Assembly (NCBI GenBank): GCA_963769425.1
Contig: CAVYLP010000004.1
Span: forward strand, 1 to 64,000
DNA length: 64,000 bases
DNA from: Candidatus Bathyarchaeota archaeon
Lineage (GTDB): Archaea; Thermoproteota; Bathyarchaeia; TCS64
Direction: 5' to 3'
Made by a program: the position numbers and the translations under genes. The notes under the pieces were generated by a model. That model searched no databases. It saw only the letters and a program-made list of their open reading frames with translations, and was not told the DNA's origin. Within the stretch, counting starts at the first letter, position 1, and every line of letters starts with the position of its first letter. Of this stretch, positions 1-11,507 are shown piece by piece.

Positions 1-61
1 CACAGTTGAAGCCTACAAGAAGTAACCCCCTTTCTCTACAGTAAAATATTTTTTAAATTAA

Positions 62-605
62 AACTGTGGATTAATATGATACCTCCATGGCGACGACCTC
101 GTGGGTGTCGACCCTGACGGCGAAGTTGAGCTTCACGTAGTGCTTCTTCTTGCCGTGCTTCCTCTCGATCCATCCGCCGGCCTGCTCGACCTTGAGGCCC
201 GTGGAGTCCATGGCAATCGTTACTTGCTCATCGGTCTCCCTGAAAGCCTCGTGGGGGTCGACTGTCCGCTTCTGGATCTTTTTGGGGAGGCTTGAGTAGT
301 CTCCACTTGGAATTCGAATACAAGCCTATAGAGGGTGTTTGTGTAGCCTTCGAGCTGTCGGTATGGCATCTGGTAGATGTATCTGACGGCTGCGAGGAGT
401 TGTATGTAAGGTGTTGGATAGTTTGTATCGGGGGCCGGGTCTGCCCTCGTTCATCTTTTGGATTTCTTTTTCGTGGCTTCTCAGGGATTCGATGTTTAGA
501 ATGAGTTCTCCGCGTCTTATGAGGCGTTGATCGACTGTTTTCCAGTCCATCTGCCTGGAAATATCTCTAATCTATTATAAGATTTTTATGATACTCCACA
601 AAGCA
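62..605 (-). mobile_element. Internally deleted IS5-family (IS903-like) element
   Basis: 605-372 is identical to 4172-4405 and 195-81 to 4583-4697, in inverted orientation. Left end TGCTTTGTGGAGTATC at 605-590; right-end-like CTGTGGATTA at 64-73. The transposase stops after ...VVAMEV. Confidence 0.85.
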
Positions 606-880
606 AGAATTACTTCTATGTTTTATTCTATCAATTAACTAACAAAATTAAACTAAGATATTTTTATTCCATTTAACTAATTGTTTAATCTGACAATATG
701 ACATGGCGTTGCTTTTGAACCTGAGTTAAAATGGGAAAGGATTAAGTTTAAACGTCAAATGGACTCAAAAATGATTATTTAGGAGATTGTATTGGGTGGC
801 TGGGGTAGAAGTCTAAAATGGATTCTATTTACGGATTATTAACAAATTGTGTTTCATGGGTAGAAAATTATCAGATTACA

Positions 881-2293
881 TCATCCAAAATCCGAGATGA
901 TCAAAGTATTGTCTGTGCCTAAACCCAATCCGTTCAATGCCCACTTGGGAAAACTGAAAACCAGATCTCCATTATCGGGTGCTCGAAAGGTCACCGTTAT
1001 GTCGACTTTTTCGCCCAACTTCAAAGTCAAGTTACCCATCGGCTTGAACGTTAGAAGACTTCTCAGCCTATCTACCGTGTTCGATTGGATCTCGTAGGGG
1101 TCCCGATAAAGCGGATCAACATAGAGCTTGACAGAAGATTTTATGGAATTGTAAGAGATATACTTTACTGTAAACATGAATGTATAGTTCCCACCCCTAA
1201 CGATTTGTATCTGGTCAGGGAGTTTAGGATATTCTACCTTGACATAACCATCAATACCTAATGCAGCAGCCTTCTCGGCAGTATCTACCTGGGACTCAGT
1301 GTAGCTAACGCCTCCTCGCCCATTGATCTTATATACTTCCCCTGAAATCGGGTCAACTAACGCATAGACATATTCGCGGGTCCTGGCCCAAGGAGGGTCG
1401 AGGTAACTAACGACCTGCCACAGATATTTTTCGGCGTAAACTTGGGTTCCATAATCGATATTAAATTGTGCAGTTATCTCTGCTTGAGTACCCCACTGCC
1501 CCTCGATGAAACCTGCTTCTACTGCTAGATGCCTGGCTTCATCTGCTGTGATCCTATATGGCTGTAAGTTGTCTTTCGTCGGTATTCCATACGCCAAAAC
1601 GTAGTCTTTAGTGAAATAAAAACTCACATTCTGGTCGACATTGTAGTTGCCAACCTCGATACGGTACTTGAACGTAACCGAAGTGTCGTTTCCTGAGATG
1701 TATGGAGATTTCACCGTTGGGTCGTGGAAGTACTTGTTAAAATAGTCAAGTCCAACTGAATCGATTAGCATCGTCGAAGCTTTAACTAGAGGATTTTTTC
1801 CAAGGGTTATGAGCGTAGCGTTCAACTTGTTGATAGTCTGCCGGGCGGAATCTAGCGAGGCAGCAATTTTGAGTTTCTCGGTAAGTTGAGTTTGATACTG
1901 GTCAGATAACTCAGCATATCGGTTATTGAGCTCAAGAATACCCAGTCCGGATACCGCTAACGTGATTAAAAGAATCGCGGTGACCCATTTAATCAGGGGT
2001 GGGGAGGGTGTTCTGGCTGGGTGCTTGCTTGGTTCTTCTACCCCCTTAATGAGTACAGTCGTTGCTCTTCCAAAATCTGAAAGCGTATACTTATCTTCAC
2101 GGTCCTTTGTGATGAGAGAACTCAAAGCATCTAGGTGATAATTGAGGAGACCATTGTCAATGTTCAGTTCCGTTTGTATCTCCGTGTATGTAGCTGGTTT
2201 CTCGCCGATCATCCGAAGTATTCTCCTTCGGATTGGATTCTGCATCGCTTTGAAGATGGTATTGTAAGTGTCTTCTTCAAGGACCATTGTCAT
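881..2293 (-). CDS. Membrane-anchored ArsR-like winged-helix regulator with large extracytoplasmic domain
   Basis: N-terminal EEDTYNTIFKAMQNPIRRRIL...LNYHL wHTH, one hydrophobic TM (WVTAILLITLAVSGLGIL), a coiled coil, then a beta-rich C-terminal region. Confidence 0.75.
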   Translation of the reverse strand: MTMVLEEDTYNTIFKAMQNPIRRRILRMIGEKPATYTEIQTELNIDNGLLNYHLDALSSLITKDREDKYTLSDFGRATTVLIKGVEEPSKHPARTPSPPLIKWVTAILLITLAVSGLGILELNNRYAELSDQYQTQLTEKLKIAASLDSARQTINKLNATLITLGKNPLVKASTMLIDSVGLDYFNKYFHDPTVKSPYISGNDTSVTFKYRIEVGNYNVDQNVSFYFTKDYVLAYGIPTKDNLQPYRITADEARHLAVEAGFIEGQWGTQAEITAQFNIDYGTQVYAEKYLWQVVSYLDPPWARTREYVYALVDPISGEVYKINGRGGVSYTESQVDTAEKAAALGIDGYVKVEYPKLPDQIQIVRGGNYTFMFTVKYISYNSIKSSVKLYVDPLYRDPYEIQSNTVDRLRSLLTFKPMGNLTLKLGEKVDITVTFRAPDNGDLVFSFPKWALNGLGLGTDNTLIISDFG

Positions 2294-2333
2294 CTCATAG
2301 ATCCCTTTGCCTAGGATTTATTAAGGGGTTTTC

Positions 2334-2394
2334 GAGAAGCTTCATTCTCCTTTTCGTTCTATTTCATGATTTCCGGGAGAAGAATCATTCTCCC
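2334..2394. promoter_or_regulatory. Two dyads GAGAA-N6-TTCTC upstream of the TATA box of the 881-2293 regulator
   Basis: GAGAAgcttcaTTCTC at 2334-2349 and GGGAGAAgaatcaTTCTCCC at 2375-2394; TTAATAAA on the minus strand at 2324-2317. Confidence 0.5.
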
Positions 2395-2572
2395 ATGGAT
2401 TAAAAATAAGTGAAAAAGTTCTGAAGACACTAGGTTCTCGTCGAAACGCTGAAAATAGTTAAAGCAACTTTTTTAAATATTAACTATGCAATAATGTTAA
2501 ACGATAATTATGTGATCATTGAACTGGTTCATATAACGATTAAAAAAGAGAAAAAAAATGGAATTATACCGA

Positions 2573-3238
2573 TTATGGGAACAGCAGGGTTTTCAGGTCG
2601 CTTGCATTAGCGCCGTTCATTTTAAGGGCTTCGTTGACGGTGCCAATGTTGATGTCTAGCTCAGCAATATTGTATAGCTTGCCATCAACTATCTGGAACC
2701 TCCCCTGAGGGCCACCGTAGATCATGTACCCCCTTGGGCAAAGATTCAGGTAGAGCACGACCTCATCATCCGTCTTCATCAAGGGATCGTTCTTGACCTT
2801 GAATGGTGTGCCGTTGAACGCGCCACCCATCTGCTCTACGGAAATTGTCGGGTTGTTAAAGCTTCCCTTAAGAACTTCCTTGACCTCGACGGTAAAGCCG
2901 GTATAGACATCGGGCAATTCGATCCCCTTGGGATCTATCGTTACTGTTACTTCACTGGTCTTCACCACGCCCCTGATGACTAGCTCGCTATTATCGGCCA
3001 ATTCTTTGACGCTGTTGAGGGTATAGTAGTCTACATAAATCGTAGATTCAAGCTTGCTGCCTATTTCAGGCGGTATACTGCCGGTGTTAACCAACCGCCT
3101 GAACTCGTTGAAGCTCCAGCCATTAGCTTGGAGGAATTCGTCGAACGGATTGCTTGTACTTGCCTTTATGACGTATGTTGCCGATATTAGCGCAGCGCAC
3201 ACGAGAAGAACTGAAACTATGACGTACTTCTTGTTCAT
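2573..3238 (-). CDS. Secreted or membrane-anchored protein, possible OB/NTR (TIMP-like) fold
   Basis: Signal/anchor MNKKYVIVSVLLVCAALISA; segments SVKELADNSELVIRGVV and FTVEVKEVLKG; starts 12 nt after the protease stop. Confidence 0.6.
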   Translation of the reverse strand: MNKKYVIVSVLLVCAALISATYVIKASTSNPFDEFLQANGWSFNEFRRLVNTGSIPPEIGSKLESTIYVDYYTLNSVKELADNSELVIRGVVKTSEVTVTIDPKGIELPDVYTGFTVEVKEVLKGSFNNPTISVEQMGGAFNGTPFKVKNDPLMKTDDEVVLYLNLCPRGYMIYGGPQGRFQIVDGKLYNIAELDINIGTVNEALKMNGANASDLKTLLFP

Positions 3239-3249
3239 TTCTTGTCCTC

Positions 3250-3858
3250 CTAATAGATGCTGTTTACGCCCCAGATGTCAGCGTTCTGGCCAGTCTGAGG
3301 AGTCCATACGCCACGAGCAACGTTTGCGCTAACTGATGGATACATAATCTGTGCAGGGGTATAGCCCGTCTCATCGAGACCTAGATCATGCCCGAGTTCA
3401 TGACCGCAGCACTCTCTTTTCTCGTTAGTCGTCATGGTGTCGTAATATGAGTTGAAAGTGACCCTTGCTGAATAGAGCGTCCACCCTGAGTAGTTTATCT
3501 GCTGCCAGTAGCCAGGAACGTTATTGTTGCCGTCGTTAACCGCGCGGACGGTCGTGACCGCGTCGTCTGGAGACGAGCTGATTTGCAGAGTACCGAAATC
3601 GGTTCCAGCCCAATCGCTTACAGAAGTTGAGAACTCTGACCAAATGGTCGTTGTTCTATAGTATTTGTGTGGATTTCTGTAGGGACTTCCAGACACCCAA
3701 ACCCAGTTTGACGCGGTATATGCGTGTACTTGAACACTGCTTGCTAGGACTACGATGGTTAGCCCGAATGCGCAAGCAAGCAGAAGTTTTTCCTTCAGGT
3801 TGAAAAACGACTTTCCTCCTTCTTCGCTCAGTTTTCTTTCCATCTTTTCACCCCGCAC
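3250..3858 (-). CDS. Secreted matrixin-like zinc metalloprotease (metzincin)
   Basis: Signal peptide ending VHA; HELGHDLGLDE zinc motif followed by Met-turn QIMYP. Confidence 0.8.
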   Translation of the reverse strand: MRGEKMERKLSEEGGKSFFNLKEKLLLACAFGLTIVVLASSVQVHAYTASNWVWVSGSPYRNPHKYYRTTTIWSEFSTSVSDWAGTDFGTLQISSSPDDAVTTVRAVNDGNNNVPGYWQQINYSGWTLYSARVTFNSYYDTMTTNEKRECCGHELGHDLGLDETGYTPAQIMYPSVSANVARGVWTPQTGQNADIWGVNSIY

Positions 3859-4171
3859 TCTTTACTCGTTCACATCGAGTGCGTGATGACCTCGGAAGCA
3901 ACAAATATTTATACTATTTTGAATCATTTGTCAACTTACTTGATCGAAAGTGAAAATTCAAAATATAATAAATTCAAAACGATTTCAATTAGAAATGTTT
4001 TAAATTCCAATACTTTTTCACCTTTATTTAATAAAGTTATAAGAATGCTGAATTAGAAACATTTTACATTTTAAAAATATTCAAAATTTAGATATACTAT
4101 ACAATTCTTACTTTCAGTAGTTTAATTATTGTATGTTTATTTTTTTAAAAAAAATTATTAATAAAAAATAA

Positions 4172-5155
4172 TGCTTTGTGGAGTATCATAAAAATCTTAT
4201 AATAGATTAGAGATATTTCCAGGCAGATGGACTGGAAAACAGTCGATCAACGCCTCATAAGACGCGGAGAACTCATTCTAAACATCGAATCCCTGAGAAG
4301 CCACGAAAAAGAAATCCAAAAGATGAACGAGGGCAGACCCGGCCCCCGATACAAACTATCCAACACCTTACATACAACTCCTCGCAGCCGTCAGATACAT
4401 CTACCGGTATGCCCTACCGCCAACTCGAGGGCTACACAAAGACCCTCTACACCCTTGTTCCGACCTCCCAAGCGGCGACTACTCCGGCCTACGGAAAAGC
4501 ATCCAGAAGCGGCCAGTCGACCCCTACGAGGATCTCAGCGAGACCGATGAGCCGGTGAGGATCGCCATCGACTCCACGGGCGTCAAGGTCGAGCAGGCCG
4601 GCGGATGGATCGAGAGGAAGCACGGCAAGAAGAAGCACTACGTGAAGCTCAACTTCGCCGTCAGGGTCGACACCCACGAGGTCGTCGCCATGGAGGTGAC
4701 TACCGACGACACGCATGATGTCAAGGCCCTGCCTGGATTGGTTGAGGGTTCGGGTAGGAACGTCCGCGTCTCGAGGGTGTACGGGGACCCGGCCTACGAC
4801 TCGTCGGCTGTCTACGCGCTTCTCGAGGGGTTGGGGGTTGAGGTGGTGGTGAAGCCGAAGGGGAACGCGAGGGTCGATAGGGGTCACGCTGGGCGGCGGC
4901 GTGCCGTGGGGCTTATCAGGGCTCTGGGGTACGTGGGTGGGCGCGGGTGATGGGTTATGGGCGTAGGTGGGCGGTGGAAACGGCTTACTCGTTGTTTAAG
5001 CGGTTGTTTGGGGAGGGTGTGTTGGGTAGGAGTTGGGGAGTATCGTGGTGGAGCTTGTGGATAAGGTGGCTCTGTACAATGCGTTGGTTAACATGTGATT
5101 GGTGGATGATGTTGAGAGCGTGGGGTCTTGGTCTCTAATCGATAATCCACAGAGT
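4172..5155 (+). mobile_element. IS5-family (IS903-like) insertion sequence with frameshifted DDE transposase
   Basis: Imperfect TIRs GCTTTGTGGAGTATC (4173-4187) and GATAATCCACAGAGT (5141-5155). Transposase motifs IAIDSTG, YGDPAYDS and YGRRWAVETAYSLFK are spread over ORFs 4227-4550, 4555-4950 and 4947-5138. Confidence 0.9.
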
Positions 5156-5395
5156 ATTAATTATTATATATTGATAGTTAATGAAATATTTTATTTTTTA
5201 TAAAACCAATATTGAAACATGTCGTCTGAGCACATGGAAAAAGCCTACAGGTGGTAAAGTGGCTAGACCCACCGCGAAACCGCGACCTCATAAATGTAAC
5301 CTGCATGTGGTTAGGAACCCTGATAAGGCGATAAAAATCAATAATCTAGAGAAAAAAATGATTGTTCACTTGTTCTATCTCATTGATCTTTGTGC

Positions 5396-5878
5396 TTAGT
5401 TGTTGACCAGTGTAATTGTGCCTGAATAGGATACAGTAGCGGAATTCTGATTTACGATTCTTACGTATGTTGTAGCGCCATTCACGGTTATCGTTGGGGA
5501 GGTTTGGCCGCTCCCAAGTTCGCCCGACCACTTGGTCACACCACCAGAGATAATGGAGCAAGTTAGAGTATAGCCTGTGGTCACACTGCTGAAACTGACG
5601 CTTATGGCATAGGGGTTATAGTTCTGAGACTGCCACCCCGTATCGTGTGTGAGCGAGCCACTGATAGGAATGTAGGTATAGGTTATGAGTGGCTTGACAA
5701 CAGTCACACCTTCGATTGGCCCGGAGACGGTATAATCTATAGTGAAATTTGTTCCTTGGTCGGGAGCTGCGTAGATATATGTGTCAGCCGCTCTAACCGG
5801 TGACAGGGAAACAACGGATGAAACAACCAACACAAGTATAAGACAAATCATCATGCCTACTTTTCTATGGGTTATCAA
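5396..5878 (-). CDS. Secreted beta-rich protein of unknown function
   Basis: Signal peptide ending PVRA; Thr/Ser/Gly/Tyr-rich beta-type sequence; divergent from the adjacent regulator. Confidence 0.65.
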   Translation of the reverse strand: MITHRKVGMMICLILVLVVSSVVSLSPVRAADTYIYAAPDQGTNFTIDYTVSGPIEGVTVVKPLITYTYIPISGSLTHDTGWQSQNYNPYAISVSFSSVTTGYTLTCSIISGGVTKWSGELGSGQTSPTITVNGATTYVRIVNQNSATVSYSGTITLVNN

Positions 5879-5925
5879 TTTGTTTACCCAGTAATCTATC
5901 GCAAGCTTTATACATTTAATATTTT

Positions 5926-5990
5926 TTGAAAGGAAATTTTGTCAACCGAGATGACTCTTATTCAGCAATCGATGAAAAGAAATCTTTTCA
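5926..5990. promoter_or_regulatory. Two (T)TGA-N12-TCA(A) dyads in a divergent promoter
   Basis: TTGAaaggaaattttgTCAA at 5926-5945 and TGAAAAGAaaTCTTTTCA at 5973-5990, just before TTTAATAAA at 5996. Confidence 0.45.
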
Positions 5991-6031
5991 AGAAATTTAA
6001 TAAACTCGCAGTCCTTTTGGAATTGAGCGGT

Positions 6032-6931
6032 TTGGCCAGTTTCGAAGAAGACACTTATTCAAGGATATTCTCGACGCTCAGGCATCCGGTAAGAAGAAAG
6101 GTTCTACGCATTCTATCAGAGCGTCAGATGTCATATACGGAGATCCTGAATTACCTTCAGGTCACTACCGGATTCTTGAATTATCACCTTGAAAATATGG
6201 GCAATCTCATCGCTAAGAACGAAGAAGGCCAGTATAATTTAACCTCATTCGGCCAGGCAGCATTGACGCTTATATCTAACGTAGAGATGATACAGAAGAT
6301 ACCCTCCGATTTAATAATATTAAACAGGAAGATAAAGTGGAAATATGTTGCTTTTTTCTTCATAAGCGTTTTAGTGATATCTAATGTCATCATCTTGTAT
6401 AATAACAATCAGTTAAATAATAAAGAATCCACAATTATATTAAACATATCAATCCAAAACATAAATATGACTAACAAAGTCATTGATATTTTGAACGCTA
6501 CTATAAAAGATGGAAAAATTGATTTTCTCACACAGAGAAACCTCGTCGAATACACAGGAACGCTAGCAAGTAATTATGAGAAACTCGCACAATTAGTGGA
6601 ACCAAATAACGAAAAATTGTTGCAGGCTAAAATGGCGATGGATGATTTGAACTCATTCATGAATGATTGGAACAACGTATACATGACTTATCTCATTATA
6701 AAAAATAATTATAACTATAGTAATATAACAAGTATACAGATAGACTCTTTGAAGGTAATCAATGATGATTTGATGAAAATAAATAAATTAGTGTTTTTGG
6801 ACGTTAATAATGCTCAACAACTAAATCAGGACAGTTTATTGCATATTTATAACTTGTTTCAAAAACTGCAGATCGATGTGGAGTCAGCTAGATCTGCTTT
6901 TTACACTGGAACCTTTCTTAGTGAACCTTAG
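6032..6931 (+). CDS. Membrane-anchored ArsR-like winged-helix regulator with helical extracytoplasmic domain
   Basis: FEEDTYSRIFSTLRHPVRRKVL...FLNYHL is paralogous to 881-2293; TM YVAFFFISVLVISNVIIL. Start placed at TTG 6032 by homology (ORF track starts at 5939). Confidence 0.75.
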   Translation: MASFEEDTYSRIFSTLRHPVRRKVLRILSERQMSYTEILNYLQVTTGFLNYHLENMGNLIAKNEEGQYNLTSFGQAALTLISNVEMIQKIPSDLIILNRKIKWKYVAFFFISVLVISNVIILYNNNQLNNKESTIILNISIQNINMTNKVIDILNATIKDGKIDFLTQRNLVEYTGTLASNYEKLAQLVEPNNEKLLQAKMAMDDLNSFMNDWNNVYMTYLIIKNNYNYSNITSIQIDSLKVINDDLMKINKLVFLDVNNAQQLNQDSLLHIYNLFQKLQIDVESARSAFYTGTFLSEP

Positions 6932-7462
6932 CAAATACCTCATCATTTTTTCAGGTATTCAAGCATATATTCTGATTCCTTGGGCCCATCAAGCACCTTA
7001 AGAATCATCTTAATAAAAAAAATGGCAAAATAACTTAGTGGATGCTAAATTGCCTTGCCTTATTGTTTCAGAAAGTGAGGCTGAGATTGAATATGCTAAG
7101 TTTCGCCCTGAATGTGGCATCCGAGTTTTAAAAATAGAATATGGACACGCTGTCGCCCGTTGCTCGGGGCTGGGACGTTTTCAGATCAGAGATTAATGAT
7201 TTACAGCGGATGATTATTTTCTGGAGAATGTGTGGCGCACGTGCGGATCGTTGAGGAGGCCCACATATGTGGACTCGCAGAAAATGGCTCAAACTCTCTA
7301 CATATTATTCAACGATGTTTAGTCCTTAGAGATCATTATCGTGGCGTCCTAGCTAAAAAGGGGTAATGAGAGACTTTTTGAAGGGCTTAATAGACTCAAA
7401 GCTAAGTATTCTCGTTGAGTATTGATAGAAAAATTTTAAAATAAAATGTTATCAACTGACAT

Positions 7463-9253
7463 TTAGCCGGAGTAGTAGTAGCGCCCGGACTCTTTCTGCT
7501 CCTTGTCGAGTCTGCTCCCCGGCTTGTTTACGCGTGGCCTCTTCGTGTCGGCGTCGCGGCGGAAGGTCACCCCCATCTGCTTCAGGAAGGCGTTCATGCC
7601 GTCCTCGAGGCTGAGTGGCTGACCCGCGTATCCACTTATCCCCGCCTCGCCGGTGAAGACCATGAGCTTATCCGCGATGAAGTCCTGCGTGACTATGTCG
7701 TGCTCGACGACGAAGGCGGTGACTCCCCTCATCTTGGTGATGCGGCGGATGGCCCGCGCCACCGCTAGGCGCTCTTCGACGTCGAGGTATGCGCTTGGCT
7801 CGTCTAGGAGGTAGATGTCCGCGTCCCTGCTCAGGCACTCGGCGATGGCGACGCGCTGAAGCTCGCCACCCGAGAGGACCTTGACGTCCCTCTCCAACAT
7901 CCTCTTGACATGGAGTGGGTCAAGAACCTCGGCCGTGAACCACGTCTCCGTGTACTTCTCCCCCGCCGCCTTCCTGAGCATCTGCTCGACCGTGCCCGGT
8001 ACGCTGCTCTGGCTGAGGTACTGGGGCTTGTAGCTCACCTTGAGGGTCGGGTTGTTTACGGAGCCCTCGTCGGGCTGCTCGACCCCCGCGAGCATCTTGA
8101 TGAACGTCGTCTTGCCGATCCCGTTCATGCCCAGGATGCCGACGACCTCGCCGACGCCGATCTTCCCCGCCTCGACGTCGAGGCTGAACCCCCCATACTT
8201 CTTCTTCAACTCGCTCCACTGGAGGAGTGTGCGCGCCCTCGTCCTGTCGACGTTCGGGGGCTTGTCATGGAAGATGATGGGGGTCTCCCTGAAGCGGATG
8301 TTCTCGTCGGGGATGTAGCCGGTTATGTAGATGTTTATGCCTTCACGGACAGTGTGGATGTGGCTCACGATGCCGTAGACGTCGGGCTCACCATAGAGGA
8401 GGAAGACGTCATCGCTCATGTAGTCGAGGACGGCGAGGTCATGCTCCGCCGCCACGACCATTTTCTCCGCGTCGACAAGCCCGCGTATGACGCGTGCCGC
8501 CTTGGTACGCTGGTAGATGTCGAGATGGCTGCTAGGCTCGTCAAATAAGTAGACCTTGGCGTCCCTGAGCACCGCCGTCGCTATTGCGACGCGCTGAAGC
8601 TCGCCCCCCGAGAGGACGTCAAGCGGCCTGTCCATGAGGTACTCTAACTCCAGGTCCTTTGCGACCTGCTCCATGACGCCCCTCTGGTCGAGCCTCTTCA
8701 GCACCTCGCCCACGGTGCCCTTGATGATCTTGGGTATCTTGTCTACGTATTGGGGCTTGAGGACAACCTGCATGGTGCCGCCGTATAGGGCGTCGAGGTA
8801 GTCGTACATTGGCTGCCCGGCGTAGTTCTCCTTGACCTCCTCCTTGGTGGGGGGCTCCATGTAGTTGCCGAGGTTGGGGATCAGCTCCCCGCTGAGGATT
8901 CGGAGGATCGTCGACTTGCCTATCCCGTTGCGGCCGAGGAGGCCGACGACGCTCCCCTGCTTCAGGGTTGGGAGCCTGTAGAGGGTGAAGGCGTTTGGGC
9001 CGAATCGGTGGGTGTGGTCCGTCTTCAACTCGTCGGGGAGGTTCACGATGCGCAGCGCGTCGAATGGGCACTTCTTCACGCAGATGCCGCAGCCGCTGCA
9101 GATCATCTCCGCTACGTACGCCTTTCCGTCGTCGCCGATGCGTATTGCCTCTCTCCTCGTCCTCACCATGGGGCAGAACCTTATGCAGACGAGGTCACAC
9201 TTCTCAGGCTTGCAGCGCTCCTTATCGACGACGGCGACCCTCAACACTGGCAC
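7463..9253 (-). CDS. rli1: ABCE1/RLI1 ribosome recycling ATPase
   Basis: N-terminal Fe-S cysteines (CKPEKC...CP, CSGCGICVKKCP); two ABC domains, each with GIGK and LSGGELQR. Confidence 0.97.
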   Translation of the reverse strand: MPVLRVAVVDKERCKPEKCDLVCIRFCPMVRTRREAIRIGDDGKAYVAEMICSGCGICVKKCPFDALRIVNLPDELKTDHTHRFGPNAFTLYRLPTLKQGSVVGLLGRNGIGKSTILRILSGELIPNLGNYMEPPTKEEVKENYAGQPMYDYLDALYGGTMQVVLKPQYVDKIPKIIKGTVGEVLKRLDQRGVMEQVAKDLELEYLMDRPLDVLSGGELQRVAIATAVLRDAKVYLFDEPSSHLDIYQRTKAARVIRGLVDAEKMVVAAEHDLAVLDYMSDDVFLLYGEPDVYGIVSHIHTVREGINIYITGYIPDENIRFRETPIIFHDKPPNVDRTRARTLLQWSELKKKYGGFSLDVEAGKIGVGEVVGILGMNGIGKTTFIKMLAGVEQPDEGSVNNPTLKVSYKPQYLSQSSVPGTVEQMLRKAAGEKYTETWFTAEVLDPLHVKRMLERDVKVLSGGELQRVAIAECLSRDADIYLLDEPSAYLDVEERLAVARAIRRITKMRGVTAFVVEHDIVTQDFIADKLMVFTGEAGISGYAGQPLSLEDGMNAFLKQMGVTFRRDADTKRPRVNKPGSRLDKEQKESGRYYYSG

Positions 9254-9411
9254 CCAGTCGTCGATTATTGATGGAGCCTCTTATTTAAGCAGTAATAGGG
9301 GTACGTGTTTAGCTCTTCACCTGTTACTAGTGAGTATTTCTCTTAGAGCTTGAGACCGATCCTACAAACGATGTTTGACGCGAATCGACGCTGCGTGTGA
9401 TCAACAGCCCA

Positions 9412-10132
9412 TTCCAATTGGGAATTGTTCCTAGTAGCTGGAATTTGTTCCTTGTAGCTGGTACATTGTATTCCTAGTAGCAGGAACATCAATTCCTAGT
9501 AGCTGGTATACCATATTCCTAGTAGCTGGTACACCTTATTCCTAGTAGCAGGAACATTGTTCCTAGTAGCAGCGACTTAATTCCATGTAGCTAGGAATCG
9601 GGTTCCTAGTAGCATGGTATAACGATTTTTCCGCCACACCGATTCCATGCAGCGGGTACATCGGGACCCATCACTCCCGTTACCGATCTTCTATCCCAGT
9701 CCCTATCGTGGAGGGTGTGGAGACCGTGTTCCTGGTACGGTGGTACATGTTACGTGTAGCTTGGAACAAATTGTTCCTGCTAGGGTGGAACACGGAGCCT
9801 TCTGATCGGGGTGATGTGTTCCGGGTAGGGTGGAACGTGTTCCGTGTAGGGTGGCACAGATTGTTCCATGTAGGGTTGAACATGTTCCGGCTACGCTAGG
9901 ATAACGTTTTTTCCACGCATTTATGCCAATTAGGAAGGTTACGTATTCTCCTTAACACGAACCGGGTTCCTAGTAGGGTGGAATCACAACGCGCTCTGCA
10001 ATGACCCTCGATACCTGCCACTAGGAATCAGATTCCTACTAGGGTGGTATAGCACACTGGCTGGCTGGGCGTATGTGCCTCGCTGGTAGGTATAAGGAAA
10101 AACATCACTTTTTGCACCTGCCACTAGGAATC
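9412..10132. repeat. Non-coding array of about 21 degenerate dyad repeats TTCC-(TAGTAGCT/TAGTAGGGT)-GG(A/T)A with 20-24 bp periodicity
   Basis: Forward units start at 9428, 9448, 9471, 9493, 9516, 9539, 9560, 9581, 9603, 9643, 9729, 9750, 9774, 9819, 9840, 9864, 9885, 9967 and 10033; inverted units at 10012-10027 and 10115-10130. Confidence 0.95.
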
Positions 10133-10364
10133 GATCCCTCGTCGCTGCTCTTTCCAAATTATTCCAGGATGGTAGATAATTGTGGCTTTCGAAAGAAATT
10201 CAGAGCTCGTTTGGCATCTAGGTGATTCAAGTATTCTCTTCGGCGCGGTCTTGGTCCTATATTAGCGGAATTTTTTTTTGCTTATATCCTCCTACTGATT
10301 GCAAGGGAGACCTGATAACAGTCCCTTTTCTCCTATAACTATACATTTACTAATTATGAATTTA

Positions 10365-11507
10365 CTAAGGCAACTTCTTTAGTTTTGAGACCTTAGGCGC
10401 CCAGGCCTTCGTAAGCGTCTCCTCGATTATCCCCCTGTGCCCAGCCGGGTCGTACATCGCCTCTACGAGGGAGTCGTAGTCTAGCCCGTTTACGACCTCG
10501 ACCCCTGAGTTGAGGGCGTTCATGTTCAGCACTATGGCCCTCTCCACGGGCATCCTTTCTGGGTTGATGTCGATGCCGTAGAATCCCGCGTAGTTGTACA
10601 TCTTGAAGACGAGGAGCGTGGCGATCATCTGGTCGATGCCGAGGACGCCGGCGTTTAGGTCCTGGTCGTAGTTGCCGAGGGGCTGGCTGTTCCAGTGGCT
10701 GTGTGCTAAGCGCCCTTCGCGTAGGACCGAGGCGAAGGCGCCGGGGAGGTCCTCGTGCCCCATCAGAACGTGGCCGACTTCAGGGTTGAGGCCAACCATG
10801 GCGTGCCCATCCTTCAGTATCTTCAGATTCTCTTTGTGTTTGAGCAACGCTTCGACGTTCCTTGCGAATAGTAGCCCGTTCGCGGTGTTCCTATAGATAT
10901 TGTTACCCCTGGGCTCGTAGGGCTTCGGCTCCATGGCTACCCTCATTCCAGGGACCTCGTCCATTGCCTCAGCGACGGCGCCTTCGAAGCGGCTCCACAT
11001 GCCGTAGTAGTCGTGGCCGAAAGGGACCTCATACCCGTCTATCCCGGGCCAGATGACGCAGACGTCGGTGCCAAGCTCCTTGTTGAGCCTGAGGCTCTCC
11101 TTGAGCCGATCAGTTGCCGCCTTCCGGACCTTGGCGTCTGGGTTACTGAGGCTACCGAACTCGAACTGCCTGTCAAAGAAGAGCATTGGGATGCATGTGA
11201 TGAGCTTTATTCCGGTCTCCTTCTCCAGTGCCTTGTAGAGGTGGATGTTATCCCTGTTGACTTCGTTGGGATAATGAGCCTCTACGCCGAGGGAGCTGTC
11301 TACGATGCCCGCGTCCTTCATCTTCTTTATTTTCTCGATGCAGTCCGTTATCGTGCCTTTGTCGATGTAAGCGTCGTGGAATCGTCCCCCTCCGGGGTAG
11401 AAGTACCATACACCAATGCTGAACCGCGGTTTGAGCCTTGAGCCCTTTAGGTGCCTGAGCATTTCCTCAGGGGTCCTCTCCATCTTCTGAGGCCTTAGGT
11501 CGATCAT
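10365..11507 (-). CDS. xylA: Xylose isomerase-like TIM-barrel sugar isomerase
   Basis: FSIGVWYF, WPGIDG, EPKPYEPR, NPEVGH and YDQDL motifs; directly downstream of xylulokinase. Confidence 0.8.
   Translation of the reverse strand: MIDLRPQKMERTPEEMLRHLKGSRLKPRFSIGVWYFYPGGGRFHDAYIDKGTITDCIEKIKKMKDAGIVDSSLGVEAHYPNEVNRDNIHLYKALEKETGIKLITCIPMLFFDRQFEFGSLSNPDAKVRKAATDRLKESLRLNKELGTDVCVIWPGIDGYEVPFGHDYYGMWSRFEGAVAEAMDEVPGMRVAMEPKPYEPRGNNIYRNTANGLLFARNVEALLKHKENLKILKDGHAMVGLNPEVGHVLMGHEDLPGAFASVLREGRLAHSHWNSQPLGNYDQDLNAGVLGIDQMIATLLVFKMYNYAGFYGIDINPERMPVERAIVLNMNALNSGVEVVNGLDYDSLVEAMYDPAGHRGIIEETLTKAWAPKVSKLKKLP

Follow-up and report, generated by a model that had tools for sequence, protein, structure and literature searches.

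What does a dense, regularly phased array of short dyads do in a gene-free gap of an archaeal chromosome? This question is raised by a 64,000-bp stretch of a Bathyarchaeia genome (the window, which is C4:1-64000 of the 2.55-Mb genome G000; the genome comprises six contigs, C1-C6, and is 91% complete). Between rli1 and a xylose-isomerase-like TIM-barrel gene, the window carries a crowd of 16-bp units, for which a preliminary description had proposed a replication origin or a centromere-like locus. We found that this array has many relatives elsewhere in G000, and that some of them are bordered by relics of a gene module containing the large terminase subunit (TerL). On balance, we consider it somewhat probable that the array is an expanded and dispersed cis-acting region of this module, that is, a putative protein-binding region such as an operator or a pac-like site.

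The array in the window

In the window, the unit can be written as TTCC-NN-GTAG-C-N-GG. A unit scan found about 21 of them, 19 forward and two reverse, and TRF reported tandem repeats with periods of 23 bp (6.5 copies, 9428-9570), 45 bp (3.8 copies, 9448-9614) and 21 bp (3.4 copies, 9816-9889). When the pattern TTCCNNGTAGNNNGNA was searched with at most one mismatch, 20 matches were obtained in the 64-kb window, 17 of them inside 9428-10027, compared with 4.09 ± 1.98 matches (maximum 9) in 100 shuffles of the window. These data bear out the array of about 21 dyad sites that had been described at this position, and the same holds for the 1.1-kb gene-free gap, which measures 1111 bp (9254-10364), and for the AT-rich stretch at about 10150-10360 (Table 1). 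The array was also rightly described as not being a CRISPR: its units of ~16 bp are only 3-8 bp apart, whereas CRISPR spacers have ~25 bp or more. The units are organised in two forward arrays, A and B, and a module C that contains inverted units. The seven units of array B (9729-9899) follow each other at distances of 21, 24, 45, 21, 24 and 21 bp.

A dispersed repeat family in G000

The same modular repeat family is present at about 27 intergenic loci of G000, spread over all six contigs; every one of the 27 loci examined was intergenic. The closest blastn paralogues of the gap lie at C4:107442-108143 (89%, 712 bp) and C6:260062-260549 (88%, 497 bp), and many fragments were found in addition. 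At no more than one mismatch, the 16-mer TTCCTAGTAGCWGGWA matched 61 times in G000 and not once in the reversed control. The family-wide form of the unit is NNNCC-NN-GTAG-N(1-4)-GGNNN. A strand-aware scan of G000 yielded 32 directional arrays of at least three units (149 units), while no such array was found in reversed or complemented sequence.

A relaxed anchor scan of G000 gave 240 units in 57 runs. Of the 183 start-to-start distances, 140 fall between 21 and 24 bp, with the mode at 21 bp (21 bp, 62; 22 bp, 38; 23 bp, 23; 24 bp, 17). The four GTAG positions are conserved in 213, 218, 206 and 221 of the 240 aligned units, respectively, counts that are biased upward by an anchor that itself favoured GTAG-like cores. 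The arms, on the other hand, vary among arrays (TTCC, CTTCC, GTTCC, GTACC, GATCC, ACTCC and ATACC). Arrays terminate in ATAACG(N)TTTTT, with one further unit 10-20 nt beyond, and 16 of the 22 occurrences of this signature in G000 are at array ends. Module C is made up of inverted unit pairs that recur every 111 bp; blastn matched it at 12 other loci, in 14 further alignments of 60 bp or more with 75-97% identity. All copies of module C lose homology at the identical base, after ...CCACTAGGAATC, and their termini repeat the reverse unit in direct, not inverted, orientation.

As judged from these sequences, the repeat family is new and species-restricted, and is composed of phased arrays of putative binding sites. 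In the literature on tandem and intergenic repeats of Bathyarchaeia nothing comparable was found. A paper on Bathyarchaeia viruses mentions the large terminase and, in the part of it that was available, neither such repeats nor the three-gene module described below.

Gene remnants beside the arrays

Short open reading frames (ORFs) that read away from the array starts share the motif (M)RKY(V/I)FTE-ERRRL--WL, and remnants that converge on the array ends terminate in ...LGQSKAYLYWR. The former represent the 5' end of a gene for a ~90-aa protein (gene 1) and the latter the 3' end of a gene for a fusion of an ABC ATPase with a GNAT domain (gene 2). Hidden Markov model (HMM) searches were performed over the 400-bp flanks of 28 family loci with a cut-off of E<=0.02. 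Gene-1 remnants were found at six loci, all upstream of the array and on the opposite strand, and gene-2 remnants at eight loci, all downstream and likewise on the opposite strand. For each gene, the ten best HMM matches all belonged to a single one of the four possible classes of position and strand. No recurrent ORF family of at least 90 aa was found beside more than three of 24 clusters, and the remnants surfaced only through shorter ORFs and HMMs.

G000 also contains intact gene-1 paralogues of 79-130 aa (C2:94954-95193, C3:87254-87514, C3:131963-132355 and C4:351845-352132). The copies adjacent to arrays are mostly truncated, and the intact copy at C4:351845-352132 directly adjoins a module C. 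In several copies of module C, the reverse unit ACCTGCCACTAGGAA sits 11 nt upstream of ATGGTTACCATGAGGAA (MVTMRK...); the gene-1 start region behind the reverse unit is also given as ATGGTTACCATGAGG (MVTMR...) in several copies. Outside the window, module C lies between the gene-2 stop and the gene-1 start. The module C of the window is 84% identical to C4:352151-352261 and 81% identical to C3:378824-378999, and we link the window copy to the module because its module C is homologous to the remnant-bearing copies.

The residues in front of (V/I)FT differ among the gene-1 remnants (RKY, KTR, KSC and KWY), and these variants seem to go with different unit arms. Just downstream of the gene 1 at C3:87254-87514, a 10-bp tandem repeat, AGACAGAAAT, is present in 8.6 copies (L129:989-1074, at ~86.7-86.8 kb of C3); its sequence is unlike that of the TTCC units.

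A three-gene module in Bathyarchaeia

When 1.84 billion proteins were searched with a profile of gene 1, 167 cluster representatives matched at E<=1e-3, and matches were present in 43 of 201 Bathyarchaeia genomes. The 81-aa fragment of gene 2 matched the C-terminus of open frames of 480-570 aa in 36 of the same 201 genomes. The full-length frames contain ABC_tran/AAA and GNAT domains, match PHROGs 293, 886 and 11143, and end in a helix-turn-helix-like C-terminal tail. Downstream in the module lies TerL, which was recognised by Terminase_6N and by phrog_2 at 8e-32 to 8e-48.

Gene order was compared at 30 gene-1 loci and 19 gene-2 loci, two sets that partly overlap. Among the gene-1 loci, seven have the full trio gene 2 - gene 1 - TerL, two have gene 1 - TerL, two have gene 2 - gene 1 at contig ends, 18 have gene 1 alone and one has nothing. 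The gene-2 loci comprise eight trios, four cases of gene 2 - gene 1, four of gene 2 and TerL without a gene-1 match, and three of gene 2 alone. Gene 1 directly precedes TerL at nine of the 30 gene-1 loci and, in addition, on contig C2 of G000, where the intact gene 1 (94954-95193) lies 184 bp upstream of an intact TerL (C2:93274-94770), near a tRNA gene fragment. A second TerL of G000 (C6:24169-25404) is broken, and an intact gene 2 was not found in this genome.

By its gene order, gene 1 is thus in the small-terminase position, without being a recognised small-terminase (TerS) family. It had no above-cut-off match in Pfam, PHROG or PADLOC, PADLOC gave nothing convincing for either gene 1 or gene 2, and a word-index protein search with gene 1 returned its own cluster only. 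In the AlphaFold model of the gene-1 protein (pLDDT 79.7), an extended N-terminus is followed by two helices, one at residues 11-23 and a long one at residues 28-63. The module could be a minimal packaging-related mobile module and not a full provirus. Nothing specific came up in the literature on archaeal elements with terminase, acetyltransferase and ABC ATPase.

The three-gene module was seen in L167, L175, L185 and other loci of relatives, frequently on short contigs or by tRNA genes; the ABC-ATPase/GNAT protein has ~490 aa there. At one of these loci, in relative G101, an AbiEi/AbiEii toxin-antitoxin pair (L185:5185-6757) is located a few kb from the terminase module.

A palindrome in the spacer of intact modules

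In 12 intact modules, the spacer between gene 2 and gene 1 is 20-120 bp long, with one case of 300 bp, and usually contains a single palindrome. Three of the 12 palindromes (L168, L180 and L171) have a GGTTACT, GGGTTACT or AGCTACC core, with RGYTAC in common, and the arms are TTCC/GGAA-like or AT-rich. When reverse-complemented, the GGTTACT/AGCTACC-type core corresponds to TAGTAGC, the core of the G000 unit. A T-run follows the palindrome in two of these three modules.

In genus g11, the palindrome is 24 bp long, CATGTTAATGGATCCATTAACATG, and is followed by GGAAAAATTATAACGGTGTTATAG. Solo copies of this palindrome with a GTTATAATTTTTCCAC box were found as well, in G027 and G028 between a pair of conserved host genes and in G027 also by a tRNA gene. 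The G000 arrays end in a similar box, ATAACGTTTTTTCCAC. The solo copies of g11 and the similar end box of G000 suggest that the cis element spreads by itself in more than one lineage. For the copies compared here, dispersal of the cis element is not peculiar to G000, and the multiplication of units into arrays is what G000 has in addition. The solo copies of g11 lie at L187:2975-3022, L188:3007-3055 and L189:1930-1972, that is, at the same host-gene pair in two species or at a tRNA 3' end, which suggests an attachment-type site or a mobile cis element.

Distribution in relatives and instability

We compared the locus with eight relatives that share the TIM-barrel/rli1 synteny. The rli1 gene of the window is 96% identical to Bathyarchaeota rli1 loci, a likeness that places the organism in Bathyarchaeia, and a TTACTGCTTAAATAAG motif in the rli1 upstream region is common to L016, L018, L019 and L022, while blastn alignments with relatives stop at window positions 9293-9299. 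The aligned ends of the TIM-barrel gene and rli1 are 20, 32, 79, 79, 147, 337, 827 and 1151 bp apart in the relatives, compared with 1075 bp in the window. Five of the eight sites (gaps of 20-147 bp) are plain empty sites and the other three have unrelated inserts: the 827- and 1151-bp gaps were scanned and contained no tandem array, and no unit array was seen on reading the sequence of the 337-bp gap. In a pattern scan of 40 relatives, which took in fairly contiguous assemblies of 20-50 contigs, the triple-unit pattern did not match at all, compared with 36 matches in G000, and the exact 16-mer gave 0-1 matches per relative, equal to the control. The motif conservation beside rli1 that the preliminary description had suggested looking for was thus not found.

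A second copy of the family behaved similarly. The array part of the C4:107k locus remained unmatched in all 17 genomes of the genus that were compared, and in G003 a stretch of 2504 bp including the array is swapped for 31 bp. The 2.5 kb that is not in G003 (C4:107196-109699; L119:3197-5700) also encodes a low-GC 455-aa right-handed beta-helix protein (C4:108500-109867).

In addition, contigs of four public sequencing runs were aligned to the window locus. One contig of run X1 (record 4, 937 bp) matches 9176-9370 and 9966-10584 with few differences and skips 9370-9467 and 9490-9966, which indicates that, in a close relative, module C is present while arrays A and B together amount to only about one unit. 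In another contig of this run (record 3), 9296 is joined to 10597 with 242 other letters in between. A metagenome scan gave three matches, of which two were chance matches and one was real (L158). The flank of L158 is 89% identical to C1:185047-185704; in place of the ACTCC-type array of G000 (C1:184480-185120), L158 has an array of the CTTCC type. The different arm types at the same flank suggest array replacement or conversion at a fixed site. When viral contigs were scanned, the unit-pair pattern gave three single matches, which we judged to be due to chance, and the inverted unit pair gave none.

Proposed origin and role of the arrays

In the scheme that we favour, the family would derive from the cis-acting stretch that separates gene 2 from gene 1 in a virus-like, TerL-bearing module, and each ~16-bp unit would be recognised as double-stranded DNA by a small binding protein of this module. 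The likeliest candidate for the binder would be a gene-1-type protein, for example the intact one encoded at C4:351845-352132 by a module C. The spacing of 21-22 bp would place successive sites on the same face of the helix, so that binding could be cooperative. Recognition as duplex DNA fits better because the CC-N2-GTAG spacing is fixed, the 3' arm is variable and the units are phased at two helical turns. The site may originally have served as an operator and/or for pac/cos-like recognition. In G000 it may then have been amplified by slippage or unequal recombination and have spread to about 27 intergenic places, and most of the copies would now be decaying relics with no essential host role. 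The preliminary description had envisaged a cooperative protein-loading platform; in its general form this idea is supported by the 21-22 bp phasing, the asymmetric core and the short linkers, while its further part, a unique origin or centromere, is not.

Several observations weigh against binding sites of a terminase module. The sole terminase-small-subunit signal of gene 1 was Pfam Terminase_7 at E=0.079, which is below the cut-off, and its model had no informative structural match in Foldseek against the PDB, in a wide structure search or in the ESM Atlas. No portal or capsid gene was recognised beside TerL at the two loci examined, so that TerL is the sole ground for calling the module 'viral'. 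Arrays are lacking at all 30 gene-1 loci of other genomes, and array expansion was seen only in G000 and on the metagenome contig L158. Only 10 of the 28 loci retain a remnant at E<=0.02, and the window copy is not among them, as the flank HMM search gave no significant gene-1 or gene-2 remnant there (E ~6-10). No terminal inverted repeats or target duplications were found, although target duplications were not systematically examined and the flanks of the relatives are too diverged, and no transposase is linked to the family. Moreover, arm pairing is slightly above that of shuffled partners and a T-run stands at every array end, which would fit a transcribed hairpin RNA as well.

A more active role of the arrays, either as working sites for a resident terminase small subunit or as decoys for the small terminase of an invading virus, seems unlikely to us. 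Either of the two would account for arrays that persist and expand between decaying genes. If they are working sites, packaging of host DNA could start at many loci, in a manner resembling gene transfer agents or lateral transduction; if they are decoys, they would constitute a repeat-based packaging-interference defence.

The analysis removes a tempting but wrong call of an origin or centromere, and brings to light a repeat family, a conserved three-gene module of Bathyarchaeia and a plausible cis site for this module. Should the small protein bind the units, the two would be a protein and its recognition site on DNA, an accessible pair that stems from mobile elements of uncultured archaea. 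If the reading of the arrays as amplified module sites is true, they are an example of a single operator- or pac-like palindrome that grew into phased arrays and colonised a chromosome. Independently of their role, the arrays are practical markers of strain variation, and they cause assembly breaks in short-read genomes of the group.

Alternative explanations

The arrays might be genes for non-coding RNAs, with plus-strand transcripts that end at the T-run and string together short hairpins, each with a conserved loop (YAGUAGSN), which would bind or titrate a protein (a sponge). An oligo-T stretch is the usual archaeal termination signal, and the position of ATAACG(N)TTTTT at array ends would suit such transcripts. 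At C4:396362-396416 the arms differ from unit to unit but match each other (GATCC..GGATC, ATTCC..GGGAT and GTACC..GGTAT), and the mean contiguous stem is 2.82, compared with 2.59 ± 0.06 for shuffled partners (maximum 2.81 in 1000 shuffles). However, many units cannot pair past CC/GG (for example GTTCC..GGTGT and CTTCC..GGTAT). The fold z-score of -3.7 is equalled by the opposite strand (-4.0), and since both strands give similar values, folding does not discriminate. Furthermore, no common promoter-like box was found upstream of the arrays, the arrays are unconserved in relatives, and an Rfam 15 scan of 8500-11000 (E<=1) gave a sole match, RAGATH-10, inside rli1 (E=0.25, 23.1 bits against a gathering threshold of 41.2). 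We consider RNA genes improbable, and assign a similarly low chance to a selfish element of the REP/BIME or MITE type, moved in trans by a transposase that acts on GTAG-tagged short palindromes. GTAG-tagged palindromes mark the REPs that are mobilised by RAYT transposases (PMC3733652). In G000, GTAG is also the best-conserved part of the unit, even if the counts given above are anchor-biased, and the family shares with REPs and BIMEs an intergenic, dispersed and clustered occurrence of short repeats that are species-specific (PMC3733652), in addition to having a variable copy number. On the other hand, the units have 4-5-bp stems (mean contiguous stem 2.8, compared with 2.6 in shuffled partners), whereas REP palindromes have 20-40 bp; in G000, GTAG is enclosed by these short arms and does not form the base of a long, GC-rich stem; arrays with a head-to-tail arrangement predominate; and the termini of module C are direct, not inverted. 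PF01797 (Y1_Tnp/RAYT) had no match at E<=0.01 in G000, which is 91% complete, while a control search was positive for 6 genomes out of 14. Near the window array there is a single DDE transposase fragment (4555-4950, part of an IS fragment at 4227-4950), and it shares nothing with the units.

A role in host chromosome organisation or segregation, in which the arrays would be centromere-like loading sites for a partition, SMC-like or nucleoid protein, appears very unlikely. Tandem direct repeats are known from the plasmid centromeres sopC, parC and parH, which the spacing of two helical turns brings to mind; a small gene divergently adjoins many arrays, and arrays are present on all six contigs. 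Yet the scan of 40 relatives revealed none of the arrays, a near relative shows variation in them, the adjacent small genes are mostly truncated, and no gene family of at least 90 aa accompanies more than three of 24 clusters, although no search aimed at ParA or Rep was made. Least credible of all is a chromosomal oriC with ORB-like dyads, as had been proposed at the outset. Archaeal ORB and mini-ORB sites are dyads with TTCC/GGAA-type arms near AT-rich DNA, and the TTCC...GGAA dyads of the array loosely resemble their cores and have an AT-rich neighbour as well. In contrast to ORBs, the G000 arrays are multiple, lie away from orc1/cdc6 and are unconserved at the same site in relatives, and their arms are 8 bp apart around an asymmetric core. 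The only Cdc6_C match of G000 (C1:24396-24674, in the ORF C1:24363-25535) is not on the contig of the window, its distance to the nearest array of C1 (at ~110 kb) is 85 kb or more, and no ORB-like repeats were found within 2.5 kb around cdc6. At 9-10 kb, the cumulative GC skew does not turn locally, a result limited by the weak skew of archaea and by the position of the site at the start of a contig. With about 27 dispersed copies, no conservation in relatives, some of whose sites are empty, and copy-number variation in a close relative, we conclude that an oriC or a unique centromere is very unlikely.

Comparison with known systems

Plasmid iterons (RK2/R6K) and centromeres (F sopC, R1 parC) are built of direct repeats, 16-22 bp each and arranged in tandem at about two helical turns, which may load a protein cooperatively. 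The G000 arrays resemble them in their tandem direct repeats phased at about two turns (140 of 183 distances) and in the adjacent gene for a small protein. They differ in that no Rep, ParA, ParM or TubZ partner was seen (a search aimed at ParA or Rep was not made), and in being chromosomal, multi-copy and decaying, as opposed to one functional locus per replicon.

The R sites of lambda cosB and the pacL/pacR boxes of SPP1 are clustered short protein-binding repeats, direct and inverted, over or shortly before the start of the small-terminase gene, which adjoins the large-terminase gene. In SPP1, pac has three sets of direct repeats across the promoters and the start of the small-terminase gene (PMC4737164). 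The likeness to pac/cos sites (SPP1 pacL/pacR, lambda cosB) is that module C and the arrays abut the start of gene 1, and that gene 1 stands before TerL. A G000 array, however, can contain as many as 10-12 units, and the genome has about 27 such loci, most of them next to remnants of genes. Moreover, gene 1 is not a recognised TerS family, and no capsid gene was recognised near TerL at the two loci examined.

Layout of the locus and neighbouring sequences

The features of the locus are collected in Table 1. A 60-bp piece of the AT-rich tail (10272-10332) recurs at C4:83887-83946 (85%) and C1:318549-318608 (77%) and represents a separate small repeat.

Table 1. Features of the rli1 locus in the window, with paralogues of the array parts elsewhere in G000.
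Feature	Position	Strand	Remarks
rli1 (ABCE1-type ABC ATPase with N-terminal Fe-S domain)	7463-9253	-	Pfam ABC_tran 1.6e-44, Fer4_RLI 6.5e-11; host flank, outside the element
rli1 upstream region, conserved, with TATA-like TTAAATAAG box	9254-9299	-	Last DNA conserved with relatives
Unique leader of the inserted segment	9300-9427	+	Not present at the empty sites of relatives; no significant gene-1 remnant
Array A, nine forward units TTCC-TAGTAGC-NGGWA, spaced 20-23 bp	9428-9618	+	TRF, pattern and unit scans; paralogues C4:107356-107632, C6:260421-260546, C6:323516-323641
Array-end signature ATAACGATTTTT(CC), ~12 nt, then one extra unit at 9643-9658	9619-9658	+	
Array B, seven forward units with GGGTGGAAC-type 3' arm; terminal ATAACGTTTTTT at 9901-9912	9729-9912	+	Paralogues C4:107740-107923, C6:260070-260250
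Module C	9959-10132	+	Commonest family fragment; sharp 3' end after ...CCACTAGGAATC; units: forward 9967-9982, inverted pair reverse 10013-10028 / forward 10033-10049, terminal reverse 10116-10131
AT-rich tail of the inserted segment	10133-10364	.	37.9% GC at 10150-10360, window 57.9%; no significant gene-2 remnant
Xylose-isomerase-like TIM-barrel gene	10365-11507	-	Pfam AP_endonuc_2 1.3e-12; synteny; host flank; stop codon 20-150 bp from the rli1 promoter in relatives with empty sites

On the far side of rli1, positions 1-7000 of the window form a low-GC block, with 38-48% GC compared with ~60% beyond. It encodes two DUF7347/ArsR-type HTH proteins (881-2293 and 5939-6931) and contains a metalloprotease-like ORF (3250-3858). 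The DDE_Tnp_1 transposase at 4227-4950 is split, and window positions 81-655 carry a second, partial copy of its region with 90% identity.

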